Of a DNA stretch of 64,000 nt, positions 1 to 8,330 are shown piece after piece. This DNA is from Candidatus Omnitrophota bacterium (lineage in GTDB: Bacteria > Omnitrophota > Gorgyraeia > 2-02-FULL-51-18). Both the position numbers and the translations under genes were made by a program. A model generated the notes under the pieces. It worked only from the letters and a program-made list of their open reading frames with translations. It had not been told where the DNA came from and ran no database searches. Within the stretch, counting starts at the first letter, position 1, and the number at the start of each line of letters is the position of its first letter. The DNA lies in NCBI GenBank assembly GCA_945877765.1, contig CAMDWQ010000012.1:1-64000 (forward strand), in the 5' to 3' direction.

Positions 1-142
1 TCGTTGTTTTGCTGATGGATACAATCGTTGGGGAGCCGCAGAACGTGTCGGGAAAGGTGGCGGCGAGGATTCGCGGGAATGAGCCAACACCCGTGCGCCA
101 CGCTTTTAACACGGGCAACACGGGGTTCGAAACTCAAAGCTG

Positions 143-215
143 TGGACCTGAGCGGGATCGAACCGCTGACCTCCTCATTGCGAACGAGGCGCTCTACCAG
201 CTGAGCTACAGGCCC
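143..215 (-). tRNA. tRNA-Ala, anticodon CGC (73 nt, CCA not encoded)
   Basis: Read by eye as the reverse complement, it folds as a cloverleaf: 7-bp acceptor stem with the G3:U70 Ala identity pair, D-loop AGCTGGTAGAGC, anticodon stem CCTCG/TGAGG with loop TTCGCAA (anticodon CGC), T-arm GGTTCGATCC, discriminator A. Confidence 0.85.
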
Positions 216-222
216 AAAAATC

Positions 223-1314
223 TTATACGCTTGCTATTATTGGAGTTGCAATAGTAACGGAATCCATTTCCTCTGTCAACTTTGCCGACTGTGCTAAAAC
301 TGTGATAACGTTATCCAGAATCCTCACAGCCTTCGCCTGAAAGTCCGGCGACAAGTGCGAATAGCGCTGGGTCATTTCCGTCGTCCTATGCCCCAGAAGC
401 CCCTTCACAGCAAACAAAGTCACTCCCGACATCACAAGGTGAGAGGCGAAGGTGTGCCGCAGATCATGGAAATGAAAGTCCGTGATCTTGGCGTTTGTCA
501 GCGCCGTCTCAAAAGCCTTGCGAAAGTCGTAAGTTTTGCCTTCCTCGTTCGGAAAAACCAGTGAGCTGTTGGACTGTTTCGGCTGTGCCATCAATGCACC
601 CATGGCCGAATCGTTGAGCGGTATATGCCTTTTGAAGCCGCTTTTACTGATCGCGACTACAAGTTGCCGCTTTTGAAAATCAACGTCATTCCACTGCAAC
701 TGCTGGATTTCTCCCTTACGCATGCCTGTATGGAGAGCCAAGGTAACAACGTTTCTGAGCTTTAGGTCTCTGCAAAAACCGAGAAGACGCGCTATTTCGT
801 CTTTCTCAAGATACCTTACGCGCTCGTTATTAGCCTCGTCTCCCTTGTACCGCTCCACGTCTTTCATTGGGTTGTCGTGCAAGAGCTTCCACTTGATCGC
901 CTTGTTGAACATCGTACAAAGCGTGCAAAGCTCCCGCTTGACCGATGAGCGCTTGACTACCTTTTGCCGCTCAATCTTATAATCCTCGATCATCAAAGAC
1001 GTAATCTGATACAGGAATTTCTCCCCGAAGAAAGGAATGAGGCTCGCATGGTGACTTTTATCGGCGCGCTTCCAAGATTTCTTGTAAGGAATCGCGTGCC
1101 TCTGCATGTACGTCTCTGCAAAGTCCTTGAAAAGCACCTTCTCATTCTTCTTTATATCGAGGTACTTACCCTCGGCGATCTCGGTCATCCGCTTGTGATA
1201 GAACTTTTCCGCTGATCTTTTATTCGTGGTTTCAGCCGGAACGCGGACTTGCCTTCCCTCGAAGGTATAACCCATCCAGTACTGTTTACCTCTCCGATAA
1301 ACCCCCATCGCCAT
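223..1314 (-). CDS. int: Tyrosine-type site-specific recombinase (phage integrase family)
   Basis: 363 aa. C-terminal catalytic region has HDLRHTFAS (H-x-x-R) and LLGHRTTEMTQRYSHL (the conserved Tyr). The gene stops 8 bp before the tRNA-Ala 5' end. Confidence 0.9.
   Translation of the reverse strand: MAMGVYRRGKQYWMGYTFEGRQVRVPAETTNKRSAEKFYHKRMTEIAEGKYLDIKKNEKVLFKDFAETYMQRHAIPYKKSWKRADKSHHASLIPFFGEKFLYQITSLMIEDYKIERQKVVKRSSVKRELCTLCTMFNKAIKWKLLHDNPMKDVERYKGDEANNERVRYLEKDEIARLLGFCRDLKLRNVVTLALHTGMRKGEIQQLQWNDVDFQKRQLVVAISKSGFKRHIPLNDSAMGALMAQPKQSNSSLVFPNEEGKTYDFRKAFETALTNAKITDFHFHDLRHTFASHLVMSGVTLFAVKGLLGHRTTEMTQRYSHLSPDFQAKAVRILDNVITVLAQSAKLTEEMDSVTIATPIIASV
288..307. promoter_or_regulatory. 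Candidate integrase arm-type site: tandem tgtgNta half-sites (actgtgctaaaactgtgata). A near-identical copy lies at about 7624-7643.
   Basis: A 20-nt motif with 18/20 identity occurs in direct orientation about 73 bp inside the left junction and about 118 bp inside the right junction. Confidence 0.4.
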
Positions 1315-1385: not shown

Positions 1386-1568
1386 TCAATTTATCTTCTC
1401 GACTTTGCACGCATCGAGATATTTTTCGATATCGCTTTGACGAAACTTAACCAAGCGCCCGATCTTCACGAATGGAATCTTCTTTTCGCTTACCCACTTG
1501 TACAACGTGCTAACGCTTACGCCCAACATTTCCGAAATGTCCTTAATACCCATCAGCTTCTCTGCCAT
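1386..1568 (-). CDS. AlpA/excisionase-family HTH DNA-binding protein
   Basis: 60 aa. IKDISEMLGVSVSTLYKWVSEKKIPFVKIGRLVKFRQSDIEKYL is the typical AlpA / MerR-like HTH_17 pattern. It lies directly upstream of int on the same strand. Confidence 0.8.
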   Translation of the reverse strand: MAEKLMGIKDISEMLGVSVSTLYKWVSEKKIPFVKIGRLVKFRQSDIEKYLDACKVEKIN

Positions 1569-1720: not shown

Positions 1721-3037
1721 TCACCCGGCAACTGGAGGTTCTGGTGTTTCTGAGGCATCTGGTTCTTTTCCAAGCCCAAACGATCGAGCAAGTTTGTTGA
1801 TTCTAGACAAATCCCACAGGATCGCCGATGAGCCGTTGGCGGTTTTTGCTTTCTGAAAGCCAAGAGCACCCAAGACTCGTCCGATTTTGGTAGGCGTGAG
1901 CGTGTATTCTCTAACCGTATTTACTAAAGCTGTAATTGCCATAACGGGTAAAGCGCCGTTGACGACGGCATAGTCCAGGCCGAGTATGGCTTCTATAATT
2001 TGCGCTTCCAAGCTTAGGGCTCTTTCGTTGCGTTTTTCCTGCATGACGCGGCTCACATATTCCACAAAAATCTCCTCACGTTCTGGCCGCGCTAAACGTA
2101 TGACTTGATGTAACGGCTTCAAAACATCACCCAAACGGCCTTTATCGGGTTTGCGAATGTCTGGCAACTGCTTTCCGAGATGCCGGGCCCGGAATGCTAC
2201 AAGGCGCTCACGCAAAGGTAAGCAAATATCCTCCGTAACTTCGTTCTCGAAGTTTTTCTCCGTTGGCAACATTGAAATAGTCAAGCCGCGAGTTTCTAAT
2301 GTGTCGTCGATCGGCTCATTTGTTGCAAGGACTGTCGGCCCAAAGACTGTATAGTACTTGGTGTCTTTGAAACTACCTTTGTCTGGATTGAGAACACGTG
2401 GAACTTTCATTCCCTTCATAAAGCGCCCCAGGAGCGCATCCTGGCTTTGATTCTGAAGTGCCGTTTGCCATACATCTTTAACATCTGCAAAAAGTGAACA
2501 GCCGAGATCATGCCCAATACGTAGCAGATACGCTTCACGGAGAGAAGTGGCGTGAAACCCTCGATAGGCAACGAATATCATCCCTTGCCCTGTACGTGTT
2601 TTTCCACGTTCTGCTACCGAATAAAAGCAAATGATCGGTGAAAATCGAACAGCCTCCAACATGTACGTGTGCATAACCCAAGCGGCAAGGAGGTCGTACT
2701 GCGCTTCGTCGGGCAATTCTGAAATTGCTCTGTGATGTTGTAAGAGTTCATCGTAGAGCGCGGCATCAACAACGTTTGGCGCTAAAGATACCTCGGCATT
2801 GTAAATTCGGAGGACTTCCTGAGCTCGTGGAAGTCGCCAGGGTACCTCGGGCGGGGGCAAGATAGTTTCTTGGTCAAATGAATAGCGCTCGTACACGGTG
2901 AGTTCATTACCTTCTTTAACGAGAAACGCGGGATGCCCTTTGAATTCTACAAGATCAACGAGTCCATCAAAGTAAGCAGTATAGGTGACTTGCGGAGAAC
3001 GGCTGTGATTGGTATTTAACATCTTATATCTCCTCAT
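1721..3037 (-). CDS. Hypothetical island protein, 438 aa; possible replication or regulation role judged from position only
   Basis: Long uninterrupted ORF co-oriented with alpA and int. No Walker A or other motif I can recognise. In P4-like and PICI-like islands this slot often holds a primase or replication protein (inference). Confidence 0.5.
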   Translation of the reverse strand: MRRYKMLNTNHSRSPQVTYTAYFDGLVDLVEFKGHPAFLVKEGNELTVYERYSFDQETILPPPEVPWRLPRAQEVLRIYNAEVSLAPNVVDAALYDELLQHHRAISELPDEAQYDLLAAWVMHTYMLEAVRFSPIICFYSVAERGKTRTGQGMIFVAYRGFHATSLREAYLLRIGHDLGCSLFADVKDVWQTALQNQSQDALLGRFMKGMKVPRVLNPDKGSFKDTKYYTVFGPTVLATNEPIDDTLETRGLTISMLPTEKNFENEVTEDICLPLRERLVAFRARHLGKQLPDIRKPDKGRLGDVLKPLHQVIRLARPEREEIFVEYVSRVMQEKRNERALSLEAQIIEAILGLDYAVVNGALPVMAITALVNTVREYTLTPTKIGRVLGALGFQKAKTANGSSAILWDLSRINKLARSFGLGKEPDASETPEPPVAG

Positions 3038-3054: not shown

Positions 3055-3282
3055 TTAACGTTGAAAAACCATATCCTTTAGCGTTCTGTACGCATCGGAG
3101 TAAACCTTCGCCTTTACACTGCCCCCGTTGTAGTAATCAAGGGCATCTTTATGGACTTTGTCGCTGTCCTCAAAAAGTAGCGTGACTTTAGAGCCTGTGG
3201 TTTCTTTGCCAGCAATTGAGTGGCCTTTGGAAAGAAGATAACTTGCTTCGTAGAGGTTTTGCGTTTTATAGAAGTTCTTCAT
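3055..3282 (-). CDS. Small hypothetical protein (75 aa) resembling a conserved phage- or island-associated small family
   Basis: ATG start with an aaaggaaa ribosome-binding site upstream. The pattern F-K-T-x-N-L-Y-E-A-S-Y-L-L-S-K-G ... LLFED ... YYNG ... Y-R-T-L-K matches, from memory, a small DUF-type family seen in phages (DUF5659-like, unverified). Confidence 0.45.
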   Translation of the reverse strand: MKNFYKTQNLYEASYLLSKGHSIAGKETTGSKVTLLFEDSDKVHKDALDYYNGGSVKAKVYSDAYRTLKDMVFQR

Positions 3283-3979: not shown

Positions 3980-4142
3980 CCTTCATAACGATTTGTTTCA
4001 TTTCCTTTCTGATACGACTCAAGTTCTCCGCTCGGAAAGTTTTTGCTCATACTTATAACTCATTTTATCCGGTAGCCCTCAAGGCAGGCAAGAAGTATTA
4101 CGAAGTATCACTTCGTGGTTAGTTTTCACTGATAGCCAGATA

Positions 4143-4370
4143 ATTAGAGGCATAACAACCCCGAAGATAAGGCTCCAATTAGCGGAGAAGTTAAAGCGAG
4201 AGCGCCGAAGGGCTAAACTTACTCAGGAAGAAATGGCAGAATTGGTCGGCGTCAGTACGAGGTTTTATCAGATGCTTGAATCGAAAAAACCGACCGCGAT
4301 CCCGGTCGACACCCTTGAAAAACTTGCCAAGGCGTTGAAGACTACGCCCTCCAAACTGCTCAACTTTTAA
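4143..4370 (+). pseudogene. XRE-family HTH regulator with a degraded start codon (ATA where ATG is expected); the only in-frame ATG would start inside the HTH
   Basis: The plus-strand frame is open from 4059 to the TAA at about 4368-4370. It encodes ...IRLQLAEKLKRERRRAKLTQEEMAELVGVSTRFYQMLESKKPTAIPVDTLEKLAKALKTTPSKLLNF, a textbook XRE HTH. There is no ATG, GTG or TTG in frame before M at about 4233. Confidence 0.5.
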
Positions 4371-4380
4371 GCCGCAATGG

Positions 4381-5568
4381 TCAATCTGTAGCCGCCGGGC
4401 TATCCTCAAACCAATTAGGGATTTTGCCGTACTGATCGGCGGCACGGTGTATAGCTTGTATTGATTCTGGGTGAGTGGGCCTAATTTTTGGATGAAGTGG
4501 AAATACTGACAACGTATCCTTACCAGGGTCCGGCTCAAGGTCTCGAGCATAATGCTGAGGATGGTTTGTAAAAACCGCCAAATTGAACTTATCCGGATTT
4601 TGCGTGCTCGGAAGCCCGGTCAGCACGCTAAAAGTGTCCATAATTTCTTTAGCCCACGGCTTCTCCAGCGATCCTCTACCTGTTACATGCGGGAGATTCA
4701 GATCAATAAATATAACTTTAGGATCAGTAGTAGGCTTATCTAGCGCACTCCGCAGCAGTGGCTCAATATCGGCCTTTTGTTCATGTGGTGCTTTAAAAAG
4801 CCCTCCCAGAAACCCCTTCACCCCGCGCCGATGTCTACTTTTTGCCTCGACCGCAACCCTTTGGCCGGTTACTTCATGAACGCCAATGAACTCATGATGC
4901 TTTCGCGTGTTGTCCGATTCGTCCTCATACTTTAGCTTATACCCAGCTCGTATACAGGCCGCCGCTACAAATAGCTCATATCTTGCACCCTGAAACTGCT
5001 TGGGGTCTTTAAGCCTCTTGACGACATCGGCCTGTAGTGACTGATGGTCATCCAGTCTGTAGAGGTCATGAGCGAGATGCAGATAGGCGGCGGCACTGCC
5101 ACTGGGAATGCCTCCGTAAAGACCATGTTCGTTCACCGGCTGTGCTTGCTGATAAAGACAGAGACCGTTATACCATTTGAGAATCTCATGCCGATCCTTC
5201 AAAGGCTTTAGTATTTCTTTCTTGCCCCAGTCGTCGCTTTTGTTCAATACGTGCGTAATATAATAGAATAGGAAATCCGGCACGGTTTTCCATTTTTTTG
5301 AGTAATGCATGGTGCTGTGCACCGCGACGAACCTGTAACCCTGATACATCGCACTAATAATAGGCCGCCCAAATCCGTATTCCGCGGCGTGGGCAGCCTC
5401 GCGGAGCTGCTGTTCGCGCATGATCTCTTTGTATTTTTCAAGAAGTTCTGGCGACATCTCGCTATAAGGCTGAGCCTTGTCAAGCTTGAATGGTTTATCG
5501 CGACAACATTTTTTATACTTCTTTCCGCTGCCGCACGTGCAAGGGTCATTCCGACCGATATCAGCCAT
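4381..5568 (-). CDS. SEC-C zinc-motif protein (395 aa) with a possible nuclease-like E-x-K motif; unknown function, candidate defence or toxin effector
   Basis: N-terminus MADIGRNDPCTCGSGKKYKKCC is the SecA C-terminal (SEC-C) metal-binding motif. A later segment HEFIGVHEVTGQRVAVEAKSR is weakly PD-(D/E)xK-like. ATG start with GGAA upstream. Confidence 0.7.
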   Translation of the reverse strand: MADIGRNDPCTCGSGKKYKKCCRDKPFKLDKAQPYSEMSPELLEKYKEIMREQQLREAAHAAEYGFGRPIISAMYQGYRFVAVHSTMHYSKKWKTVPDFLFYYITHVLNKSDDWGKKEILKPLKDRHEILKWYNGLCLYQQAQPVNEHGLYGGIPSGSAAAYLHLAHDLYRLDDHQSLQADVVKRLKDPKQFQGARYELFVAAACIRAGYKLKYEDESDNTRKHHEFIGVHEVTGQRVAVEAKSRHRRGVKGFLGGLFKAPHEQKADIEPLLRSALDKPTTDPKVIFIDLNLPHVTGRGSLEKPWAKEIMDTFSVLTGLPSTQNPDKFNLAVFTNHPQHYARDLEPDPGKDTLSVFPLHPKIRPTHPESIQAIHRAADQYGKIPNWFEDSPAATD

Positions 5569-5645
5569 CTAATTTTCCTATTGAACAAAAAGGGGGAGCG
5601 TTTTTTAGGCGCTCCCCGGATATCACATCAAATTATATAAACTAA

Positions 5646-6908
5646 TTACTTCGTACGGCCGCCTTTACTCGCCAAGCAATGGGTCATATACTCCGCCCAG
5701 ACATGCGCCGACATAGCCTCCCAAACAACCCCCGACTTTCCGACTTTATCAAGGTTGTAATTGGCATCAACTGTTTGAAGGCGCAGGGTTTGATAGAGCT
5801 TTGGCCCTACCTTATCTGCAATGGTATACCAGACAGACGGATTTTCGCGCTCGCTTAGTACCATTTTTGTGAATGAATATGCAAGCGGCAAAAGCCACGA
5901 CTTAAGCACCTTATATCTGATCGTTTTCTTCAGAAAAACTAGCGTAGTGCTACCAGTCATAATGCCAGCTACATTTCCGAAGCCCGACTTTTTCTTGGGT
6001 TTCTTTTCTTCAGTCGCCTCGTCATATAAGTTAGCTCTTCCCTCTGCTTCGTTATACCAGTCCTCGAACCTGGAATGGATATAATCCACGAACTTAAGAT
6101 ATTCGAAAGCAACATCTCGGATGCTCTTAAGACCAGCCATTAAGCCATCCGGCCTCTTATCCGTTTTGAGATCGCTTATCATCTTTCCTGGACCGTTATA
6201 ACAACGAATTTTCGATTCAAGCTTCGGGTTCAGTAAAGAAAGAGTGGCTATCACGTCTTGCCCGTTTACATCGCCTGAAAGATCGAACTGCCTCCAATTA
6301 ATTTGACCGTAAACTCCCTTATCTTTCAGGATGTCCGTGAACCAGTTCAGATCATCCGATAAGATCAGAAGGCTCAGGTCCTTAACAGACATATTGGTAT
6401 TTCTTGCGCCTACAAGGTCAGCTAGCTTTTGCGGATCGATACCTGTAAGAACCTCCAGGGTCACGTGCTGACGATCACCGGCGGCGGTTGGGTTGATCCA
6501 ATCGCCAGACTGGAGCATATCCATAATAACTTTGTTTGTGTGGCCGCCATCCAAATTACCAAACGTGCTTTCAATTGGAGAAACCTCGTTTTTTAGAAAC
6601 GATAAACGAAGCTCGTTCTTGACGTTATCGTATTCCGCTTCGTGCGCGTTCAAAACAATCCCACGATTGTAGTACATGAACCATCCAGGCTCCGTCTTCA
6701 AACCCTCACGTATCGCCTGCGCGACTTTGGTGTCCATACTTTGATTACGTGGGTTTGGACCAAATGTGATAGCGGCCTTGCTTATCTCGTCCACGGAAAC
6801 CTGGGCGATGATGCGCTTTCTGCCCCTGCCATTAGGGTCAGGAAACGTCTTGCAGTGATCGGGTTGAACTTTGATTGATACGGTAATAGGGGAGAGAACT
6901 GATGCCAT
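5646..6908 (-). CDS. Hypothetical protein (420 aa); unknown function, paired with the SEC-C protein downstream
   Basis: Long ORF with a strong AAGGAG ribosome-binding site before the ATG, ending 77 bp before the SEC-C gene on the same strand. No NTPase motif. Loosely reminiscent of Abi-like (AIPR-type) proteins, which I cannot verify by eye. Confidence 0.65.
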   Translation of the reverse strand: MASVLSPITVSIKVQPDHCKTFPDPNGRGRKRIIAQVSVDEISKAAITFGPNPRNQSMDTKVAQAIREGLKTEPGWFMYYNRGIVLNAHEAEYDNVKNELRLSFLKNEVSPIESTFGNLDGGHTNKVIMDMLQSGDWINPTAAGDRQHVTLEVLTGIDPQKLADLVGARNTNMSVKDLSLLILSDDLNWFTDILKDKGVYGQINWRQFDLSGDVNGQDVIATLSLLNPKLESKIRCYNGPGKMISDLKTDKRPDGLMAGLKSIRDVAFEYLKFVDYIHSRFEDWYNEAEGRANLYDEATEEKKPKKKSGFGNVAGIMTGSTTLVFLKKTIRYKVLKSWLLPLAYSFTKMVLSERENPSVWYTIADKVGPKLYQTLRLQTVDANYNLDKVGKSGVVWEAMSAHVWAEYMTHCLASKGGRTK

Positions 6909-7252
6909 GGTGAGACTCCTTTAATATCCCGGTAATTAGTTCAAGCACTAGCTGATGCCGAGTACGCCATCAACAGCACTGCTCGCTCTCATGAGCCAGC
7001 TGATACATAACGTACCACGCTAGCGATGATTTGTCGACCCATTTTTTTGATACATGATAATTTTGAGAATTCCAAAAATAGATGCTTTAAATACCAAATT
7101 GAGGCGGGATTAATTCACCGGGGAAGCGGCTCCGAGTTCGCCATCCTCGGTAGCGTCCTTCGGCGCTCTCTCGGCACAGCCAATATCCGATAATCGCGAT
7201 TATCCGACATTGTCCTTGGCTCACCCTCCGCACGTCCTCGCACTCGCTCGGA

Positions 7253-7275
7253 TTGACATAAGTATCTTATGTCAA
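7253..7275. promoter_or_regulatory. Perfect 10-bp inverted repeat with a 3-nt spacer (ttgacataag-tat-cttatgtcaa); candidate operator
   Basis: Seen directly in the island's non-coding arm, about 345 bp upstream of the 420-aa gene start. Confidence 0.35.
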
Positions 7276-7761: not shown

Positions 7762-7799
7762 TTGCGAACGAGGCGCTCTACCAGCTGAGCTACAGGCCC
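7762..7799 (-). repeat. Partial tRNA-Ala copy (nucleotides 1-38, to the end of the anticodon loop); distal att repeat of the island
   Basis: Exact 38-nt identity with 178-215. Identity stops precisely at the anticodon-loop / 3' anticodon-stem boundary. Confidence 0.75.
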
Positions 7800-7861
7800 G
7801 TCTCTGGCACAAACCAAGCAAAGAAAAAAATCTGAAAAAAATCTATTTCACCCCACAAATG

Positions 7862-8013
7862 AAGGTCCGCTCGCACTCGGCCGACGTAAGACTTTTAGTC
7901 TACGGCTCGGGTGCTGGCCCAGCACTCTACCATCTCACCCCTCACAGAAGGTCCGCTCGCACTCGGCCGACGTAAGATTTTTAGTCTACGGCTCGGGTGC
8001 CGGCCCAGCACGC
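7862..8013. repeat. Two tandem copies of a roughly 66-bp element (period about 86 bp, two mismatches)
   Basis: aaggtccgctcgcactcggccgacgtaagacttttagtctacggctcgggtgctggcccagcac is repeated with two substitutions. Each copy contains the small hairpin gtgctggcccagcac. It lies between cutA and the island junction. Confidence 0.6.
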
Positions 8014-8015
8014 TG

Positions 8016-8330
8016 CTATTTTAACGTGTCTTGAAGCCATGCCAGATACCCGGCATCCCCACCCTTCACCGTCAGCGCCAAAATCTCAGGAACTTTATAC
8101 GGATGAATCTCACGTAGCGTTTTTTGCAGAGTCTTCAATTTCGCCGAAGTCGTTTTGACTAAAATTAAAACTTCACCCGTTGCTTCAATCCTGTGTTTCC
8201 ACCGATAAACCGATTTCCATCCGCCCTGGTACGAAACACAAGCCGCCAATTTTTTCTCAACCAACACTCTGGCGATTTTACGCGCAGACCGAGCATCCTT
8301 TGTTGTCGAAAAGACAACAAAGGCACTCAT
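8016..8330 (-). CDS. cutA: Divalent-cation tolerance protein CutA
   Basis: 104 aa. VVFSTTKDARSARKIARVLVEKKLAACV ... HPYEVPE-like core typical of CutA1. Confidence 0.8.
   Translation of the reverse strand: MSAFVVFSTTKDARSARKIARVLVEKKLAACVSYQGGWKSVYRWKHRIEATGEVLILVKTTSAKLKTLQKTLREIHPYKVPEILALTVKGGDAGYLAWLQDTLK

Follow-up and report, generated by a model that had tools for sequence, protein, structure and literature searches.

The founding member of the AIPR family is the phage-resistance gene AbiU1 (PMC3506569, PMC3632139), and AbiU1/AIPR was later placed in the ParB superfamily (Makarova 2013; PMC3632139); the only phenotype data for the family are those on AbiU1, a modest reduction in efficiency of plating together with delayed phage transcription (PMC13064643). 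Rugutis (pUCCL633_059), a validated single-gene, Abi-like defence protein encoded on a lactococcal plasmid, is 359 amino acids (aa) long and has an N-terminal SEC-C motif and a fold otherwise unassigned (PMC11381338). Mutations that escape Rugutis lie within the c2 large terminase's ATPase domain, the protein is toxic when the terminase is co-expressed (PMC12184496), and about 6,000 homologues outside Lactococcus are given in the Rugutis paper (Grafakou et al., 2024; Mosterd et al., 2025). Here we analyze two adjacent genes, A and B, in a stretch of 64,000 nucleotides (nt) from a Candidatus Omnitrophota bacterium (assembly GCA_945877765.1, contig CAMDWQ010000012.1, positions 1 to 64,000), which we call the window. 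Gene A adds a short and divergent new member to the known AIPR family, and gene B encodes a predicted PD-(D/E)xK nuclease-like protein that begins with a SEC-C motif. We consider it fairly probable, though well short of settled, that the two are independent single-gene cargo modules lying side by side on a small tRNA-Ala island.

Both genes are encoded on the minus strand at the attR-proximal end of a 7.6-kb integrative island, with A upstream of B and 77 nt between them (5569-5645), and both are real genes, each with full-length homologues. The features of the two genes are these:

5646-6908, minus strand: gene A, a 420-aa stand-alone AIPR-family protein (ATG open reading frame; PF10592; homologues)
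6916-6921, minus strand: Shine-Dalgarno sequence AAGGAG, 7 nt upstream of the gene A ATG
6366-6761, minus strand: ParB/DUF262-like N-terminal domain of A, residues ~50-181 (fold, conservation)
5584-5617, minus strand: intrinsic-terminator-like hairpin in the gap between A and B (sequence; folding)
4381-5568, minus strand: gene B, 395 aa, SEC-C motif and PD-(D/E)xK nuclease-like core (ATG open reading frame; homologues; model)
5500-5553, minus strand: SEC-C zinc motif of B, residues 6-23, with C10, C12, C21 and C22 (PF02810, E = 4.7e-9)
4504-4995, minus strand: predicted PD-(D/E)xK core of B, residues 192-355
4289-4310, minus strand: terminator-like stem-loop and T-run, about 70 nt past the B stop codon (terminator scanner)

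A sequence-only reading of this locus had described two co-oriented genes of 420 and 395 aa, 77 bp apart at the distal end of the island, exactly as found here, and had interpreted them as a compact two-component system. The relatives of the two genes do not bear this interpretation out. Twenty-one metagenome loci with relatives of A and annotated contexts yielded 14 distinct loci in which the sequence continues for 850 nt or more downstream of A, and a relative of B occurs in 0/14 of these by tblastn and by a B profile hidden Markov model. Among ten B contexts (the window's own, L106, L109, L110, L113, L114, L118, L120, L121, and the Caballeronia plasmid L117), a PF10592/AIPR protein was found in 0/10, so that the co-occurrence elsewhere that the sequence-only reading had looked to is absent within the available sample. 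Neither gene has a conserved neighbor in these loci: all-versus-all clustering of the neighboring open reading frames (ORFs) returned only A itself and its antisense shadow ORFs as common to loci. The family sizes are also very unequal, with 51 clusters at 90% identity in the A subfamily against 970 at 90% and 1,574 at 50% for B. Finally, the gap holds a feature absent from the earlier description, a hairpin composed of GGGGAGCG, a 9-nt loop and CGCTCCCC, followed by the U-run CUUUUUGUU, with a minimum free energy of -16 kcal/mol (z = -2.9). It begins 29 nt past the A stop codon and ends 16 nt ahead of the B ATG, and it was missed by the terminator scanner because the scanner allows loops of 3-8 nt only. 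Because of the zero co-occurrence, the lack of a shared neighbor, the unequal family sizes and the terminator between the genes, we regard A and B as independent single-gene modules, and an A-B two-component system is not supported.

Several points weigh against this interpretation or against the defensive role that we attach to it. The 14 A loci and 10 B contexts make up a small sample of relatives that are 41-63% identical, and a lineage-specific functional pairing of A and B may exist in the window's island. Between the gap hairpin and the B ATG no sigma-70-like promoter for B was found, so B may still need read-through from A, and the gap terminator may be leaky. Two of the B contexts are essentially housekeeping, as is the setting of one A relative; PADLOC-DB 2.0 has no model for A or B beyond SEC-C matches and one weak match to MzaE; and the anti-phage role, the trigger and the part played by the SEC-C motif are all inferred. 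A genuine two-component system, in which A would be the sensor or regulator and B the nuclease effector, either lineage-specific or newly assembled on the island, would fit the co-orientation of the genes at such close spacing on one island, the possible dependence of B on read-through, and the frequent coupling of ParB-like domains to nucleases, as with DUF262 and DUF1524 in GmrSD (PMC3632139). Set against these are the counts and family sizes above, the hairpin with its U-run, and the occurrence of relatives of A and of B alone on plasmids and chromosomes, and we judge such a system very unlikely.

Two candidates for a cryptic partner of B were rejected. The B relative in L121 is preceded, 51 nt upstream, by a 412-aa gene, an arrangement that mimics the one in the window, but this gene is unrelated to the A profile. 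Small ORFs (78-120 aa) downstream of B relatives were considered as a conserved immunity or antitoxin gene and have no mutual similarity. The L121 gene (4711-5949, unannotated and directly upstream of the B relative) carries a D...Q-V-K motif (GDAVVLYDNVLLMVQVKSQ), which suggests that it may encode another PD-(D/E)xK or NERD-like nuclease.

The sequence-only reading had called A vaguely AIPR-like and held that this was not assertable. It is now assertable, because A scores 54.4 bits (E = 2e-14) with the Pfam AIPR model PF10592, whose gathering score is 25. The direct alignment is limited to residues 50-181 of A, corresponding to model positions 2-123 of 308. A database search returned relatives in 51 clusters at 90% identity, all of them 400-420 aa long and all matching PF10592 (51/51), with identities to A of 41-63% except for two distant members (24-25%). 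These two, P0050 and P0051, align over 88-90% of the length of A and match positions 3-283 of the 308 in the AIPR model, so by transitivity the whole of A is a stand-alone AIPR domain. On this sequence evidence A is a bona fide AIPR-family protein with little beyond the AIPR domain. More distant matches were found on Firmicutes plasmids, where tblastn aligned A at 24-27% identity over 82-95% to genes of ~400 aa annotated as 'AIPR family protein'; besides its AIPR gene, the 5.6-kb Enterococcus faecalis plasmid pML21 encodes only repB, an epsilon antitoxin, a divergent helix-turn-helix (HTH) regulator and one hypothetical protein. A scan of IMG/VR found no close relatives of A, and its phage matches are three only, all weak.

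The invariant residues of A cluster in its N-terminal domain, namely N52-x-R54, G117-N-x-D120-G-G-H123 (which includes the invariant D-G-G-H motif), E152 and A168-R-N170, and the C-terminal half is helical. A sequence-profile search of the PDB with A found nothing, and its closest structural matches are the partition and repressor proteins PadC, ParB and KorB. The ParB/DUF262-like fold fits the literature, in which AbiU1/AIPR belongs to the ParB superfamily. The earlier statement that neither protein has an NTPase motif holds insofar as no P-loop or Pfam NTPase domain was found in A or in B, but it passes over the fold of A, which is of the ParB/DUF262 type and belongs to a superfamily with members that bind and hydrolyze NTPs. 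An assignment of A to MzaE, and hence to the MZA system, was rejected: the match to NCBIfam NF041935 reaches 17.7 bits against a cut-off of 1050 and covers 41 residues only, and the island has no Mza partners.

The SEC-C motif that the sequence-only reading had noted at the start of B is present, scoring 36.4 bits against a gathering threshold of 20.4 and following the pattern C-x-C-x(8)-C-[CH]. Within the B family C10, C12 and C22 are invariant and C21 is found in more than 90% of sequences. SEC-C is known from SecA, YecA and YchJ as a ribosome- or SecB-binding zinc finger, and a PDB profile search with B returned the SecA and YchJ zinc motifs only. The remaining ~370 residues of B belong to no family in Pfam, NCBIfam, PADLOC or PHROGs. 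A word-indexed search gave 970 clusters of the B family at 90% identity, and an exhaustive phmmer search with B stripped of its SEC-C motif gave 1,574 representatives at 50% identity when E <= 1e-3 was required and 1,225 at the stricter limit of E <= 1e-10. Family lengths are mostly 350-400 aa, with some members of 350-365 aa. The motif is present in only 66/123 full-length representatives, and it is therefore an accessory module.

An AlphaFold2 model of B (predicted local distance difference test score, pLDDT, 90.7; predicted template-modeling score, pTM, 0.86) places a long helix at residues 40-64, then a small beta-sheet and helical domain at 71-187, ahead of a core with the order alpha-beta-beta-beta-alpha-beta: helix 192-207, strands 210-214, 227-231 and 237-244, helix 269-276 and strand 284-289. 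E198 lies on the first core helix (in Q-G-A-R-Y-E), E226 (consensus H-P-E-F) stands where the second strand starts, the third strand carries E241-A-K243, and D289 is on the strand at 284-289. The sequence-only reading had proposed an E-x-K segment of B as part of a PD-(D/E)xK core, and this proposal stands up well: VAVEAKSR is real, E-A-K forms the predicted catalytic strand, and E198, E226, E241 and K243 are all invariant in 102 homologues. An ExK-like strand is present in 140/148 B-family representatives. Model and conservation thus agree in identifying B as a PD-(D/E)xK nuclease-like protein with the predicted catalytic set E198 / P-E226 / E241-x-K243, and its nuclease activity is itself a prediction from these two sources. 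The scan of IMG/VR found no close relatives of B, and its core is absent from 50,697 phage genomes.

A scan of genome contigs with the B alignment was dominated by the generic SEC-C pattern, and all 80 loci kept (L001-L080) match B in this motif only, most of them being the C-termini of SecA and YecA-type proteins. SEC-C is highly promiscuous in this set. Its usual place is the C-terminus of SecA-sized proteins, and it also stands at the N-terminus of TPR proteins, of a methionine aminopeptidase-like protein, of several proteins of 600-750 aa and of a conserved Bacillaceae 331-aa 'YecA family' protein.

The relatives of B sit in variable regions rich in defence genes and mobile elements. One is the neighbor of an XRE/M78 peptidase pair and of a type III CRISPR-Cas locus that includes Card1, and the L121 relative lies within a cluster encoding a PLD-SNF2 helicase, an MmeI-like methyltransferase, a DUF87 ATPase, AbiEii and Fic. 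Others are found beside SMEK_N/CTD12, MC6/MC8, DUF2326, a serine recombinase and SNF2/DUF4391, beside a HEPN/Polbeta pair, facing an AAA_15 ATPase, and between an integrase and a type I restriction-modification system on the 20-kb Caballeronia plasmid (L117). Relatives of A are solitary; after one of them comes a DUF433/DUF5615 toxin-antitoxin pair, and another has a Bro-N gene on one side and a PLD-SNF2-Eco57I fusion on the other. The AIPR family has reportedly been linked to restriction-modification genes.

We consider both genes probably defensive. Should one or both be non-defensive, B might serve as a nuclease in repair or recombination, or help to maintain mobile elements as a selfish gene, and A might be a ParB-like DNA-binding factor of the island. 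The housekeeping surroundings of some relatives and the partition and repressor proteins among the closest structural matches of A are consistent with such roles. Yet both families are patchy and linked to mobile elements and defence genes in their distribution, the AIPR family takes its origin from a phage-resistance gene (PMC3506569, PMC3632139), and the island contains no ParA and no parS-like repeats, and we hold a non-defensive function to be distinctly improbable.

If A and B are independent defence modules, A is likely to act as a stand-alone abortive-infection or restriction-type factor. By analogy to DUF262 in GmrSD, BrxU and SspE and to DndB, its ParB/DUF262-like D-G-G-H pocket would bind nucleotide or nucleic acid, and the helical C-terminal half might have an effector or oligomerization role. 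For B, the most likely activity would be that of a latent metal-dependent PD-(D/E)xK nuclease. B has no cognate methylase or antitoxin, and it would therefore have to be kept inactive until a phage cue appears or else act only on DNA that bears some foreign feature. In the first case B would be an abortive-infection effector, auto-inhibited until it meets a phage-derived cue, as for HamA, NucC, Cap4 or Avs effectors; in the second it would recognize a feature peculiar to foreign DNA, in the manner of type IV enzymes. That B is a type IV-like restriction endonuclease of this kind, dependent on modification or structure, rather than an abortive-infection toxin, seems to us unlikely. Candidate elements that would gate or tether the nuclease are its N-terminal domain and the SEC-C knuckle, which is optional.

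The island itself is of the kind that the sequence-only reading had recognized, a tRNA-inserted element with A and B as cargo and an integrase and an HTH_17/AlpA-like gene beside tRNA-Ala. Two identical 38-nt direct repeats flank it, one at 178-215 and the other at 7762-7799; they reproduce the tRNA-Ala(CGC) gene (142-215) over its first 38 nt, and GC content across the island is an unremarkable 0.41-0.50. The remaining features of the island and its edges are these:

142-215, minus strand: tRNA-Ala (anticodon CGC), the integration target (ARAGORN; Rfam tRNA, 66 bits)
178-215, minus strand: attL, the 5' 38 nt of tRNA-Ala (direct repeat)
223-1314, minus strand: tyrosine integrase of the island (PF00589, E = 3e-37; phrog_1 integrase, E = 2.5e-70)
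1386-1568, minus strand: HTH_17/AlpA-like small DNA-binding protein, candidate excisionase or regulator (PF12728, E = 2e-16; weak Phage_AlpA match)
1721-3037, minus strand: 438-aa island protein (ORF between the AlpA-like gene and the DUF5659 gene)
3055-3282, minus strand: DUF5659 small protein (PF18903, E = 3e-8)
4191-4370, plus strand: XRE-type HTH coding remnant, in an open frame at 4113-4370 (HTH_3 positions 1-55 of 55, E = 1e-12)
7762-7799, minus strand: attR, the distal edge of the island, where a displaced copy repeats the first 38 nt of tRNA-Ala (100% identical)

For the 438-aa protein, Pfam, NCBIfam, PADLOC and PHROGs gave no match; its slot is the usual place of replication or primase genes in satellites and islands. 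The attachment (att) repeat consists of the 5' 38 nt of tRNA-Ala and reaches through the anticodon loop, unlike the usual att site in tRNA genes, which is the 3' end. With the att site in the 5' half, the functional tRNA-Ala has a 5' half supplied by the island, and what was originally the promoter region of the tRNA now lies next to the displaced fragment, at 7800-7860. The stop codon of the integrase gene lies 8 nt from the 5' end of tRNA-Ala. Immediately beyond attR, a 73-nt GC-rich element occurs in two tandem copies (7861-7933 and 7947-8019) that are 93% identical at a spacing of 86 nt and are placed between the tRNA remnant and an ORF of 104 aa (8016-8330); they have no Rfam match at E <= 0.1 and their folds are unexceptional (z of -0.6 to -1.8). 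Within the island, A and attR are separated by 850 nt that are otherwise non-coding but contain, at 7253-7275 and some 350 nt upstream of gene A, a perfect palindrome with 10-bp arms, TTGACATAAG-ATA-CTTATGTCAA. The palindrome holds a consensus -35 hexamer and may be an operator or promoter.

The sequence-only reading had also credited both genes with good ribosome-binding sites and had named a degraded XRE gene as a possible former regulator. The first claim is right for A, whereas the AGGAAA ahead of the B ATG is weaker than the AAGGAG of A. As for the second, the remnant is present, but it converges on B, tail to tail, with stop codons 10 nt apart, and it is neither a conserved partner of B nor placed as a regulator of the A-B pair. 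Its HTH_3 domain is complete (encoded at about 4191-4358), and no ATG, GTG or TTG precedes HTH helix 1 in the open frame; the first canonical start, the ATG at 4233, falls within the domain. The remnant is thus either a decayed gene or a gene that uses a non-canonical start. The terminator-like hairpin of gene B falls within it.

The closest described counterpart of B, compared by architecture only, is Rugutis: both are single genes on mobile elements and consist of an N-terminal SEC-C motif of ~20 residues followed by ~340 residues without a Pfam domain (PMC11381338, PMC12184496). B could accordingly be a Rugutis homologue that works in the same way, in which case its PD-(D/E)xK nuclease would supply the effector assignment that Rugutis lacks. 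Apart from the common architecture, the family members of 350-365 aa, the Firmicutes relatives of B (for example, P0122) and the large number of homologues reported for Rugutis outside Lactococcus speak for such kinship. The inference from architecture is weakened by the finding of N-terminal SEC-C motifs on at least five unrelated cores in our sample, and we regard homology to Rugutis as doubtful. PLSDB searches by tblastn with B, P0122 and P0424 returned no Lactococcus record. Two apparent links were discarded: in the Enterococcus and Clostridium 'SEC-C' plasmid proteins the motif is C-terminal, and the Bacillaceae 331-aa proteins with an N-terminal motif are unrelated to the B core and form a conserved chromosomal YecA-type family without Lactococcus members.

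A broader proposal, which we put forward tentatively and as somewhat less than an even prospect, is that the B family (~1,500 clusters at 50% identity of solitary predicted PD-(D/E)xK nucleases, half of them with SEC-C, and in no defence catalogue) represents either a new single-gene anti-phage system or a wider Rugutis family. In either case SEC-C might tether or gate the nuclease, which would be a new role for the motif. With its confident model, its invariant catalytic set and its 1,574 representatives, B offers a testable nuclease-effector hypothesis, and as a widespread defence-island gene outside the coverage of PADLOC-DB 2.0 its family is a candidate for single-gene follow-up. Should either gene prove to be a working single-gene defence, it would add one more entry to a long list, which would be useful and unsurprising. 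Lying next to each other on an island does not count as evidence that genes form a system, and A and B should not enter catalogues as a pair.

In line with the sequence-only reading, which could match the pair by eye to no named system, PADLOC-DB 2.0 assigns neither A nor B to one. Compared with its nearest relatives, A shares with the AIPR/AbiU1 lineage a ParB-like N-terminal fold with a D-G-x-H/Q motif, and with the short AIPR proteins of plasmids such as pML21 it shares a similar length, a single-gene organization and a link to mobile elements. A lacks the ~250-residue N-terminal extension of MzaE and the DUF1524/HNH nuclease domain of the DUF262/DGQHR proteins (GmrSD, BrxU, SspE and DndB's N-terminal domain); the arginine of the DGQHR motif is substituted (H123-T124 in A), and there is no Pfam match to DUF262. 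The PD-(D/E)xK effectors with which B may be compared are HamA of Hachiman, NucC of CBASS and type III CRISPR, SduA of Shedu, Cap4-type proteins and type IV enzymes. B has no sequence-level membership in any of these by PADLOC and Pfam; it has no HamB helicase partner as in Hachiman, no cyclic-nucleotide sensor domain and no DUF4263 signature. What sets B apart from these effectors is a distinct N-terminal domain and the SEC-C motif ahead of it.

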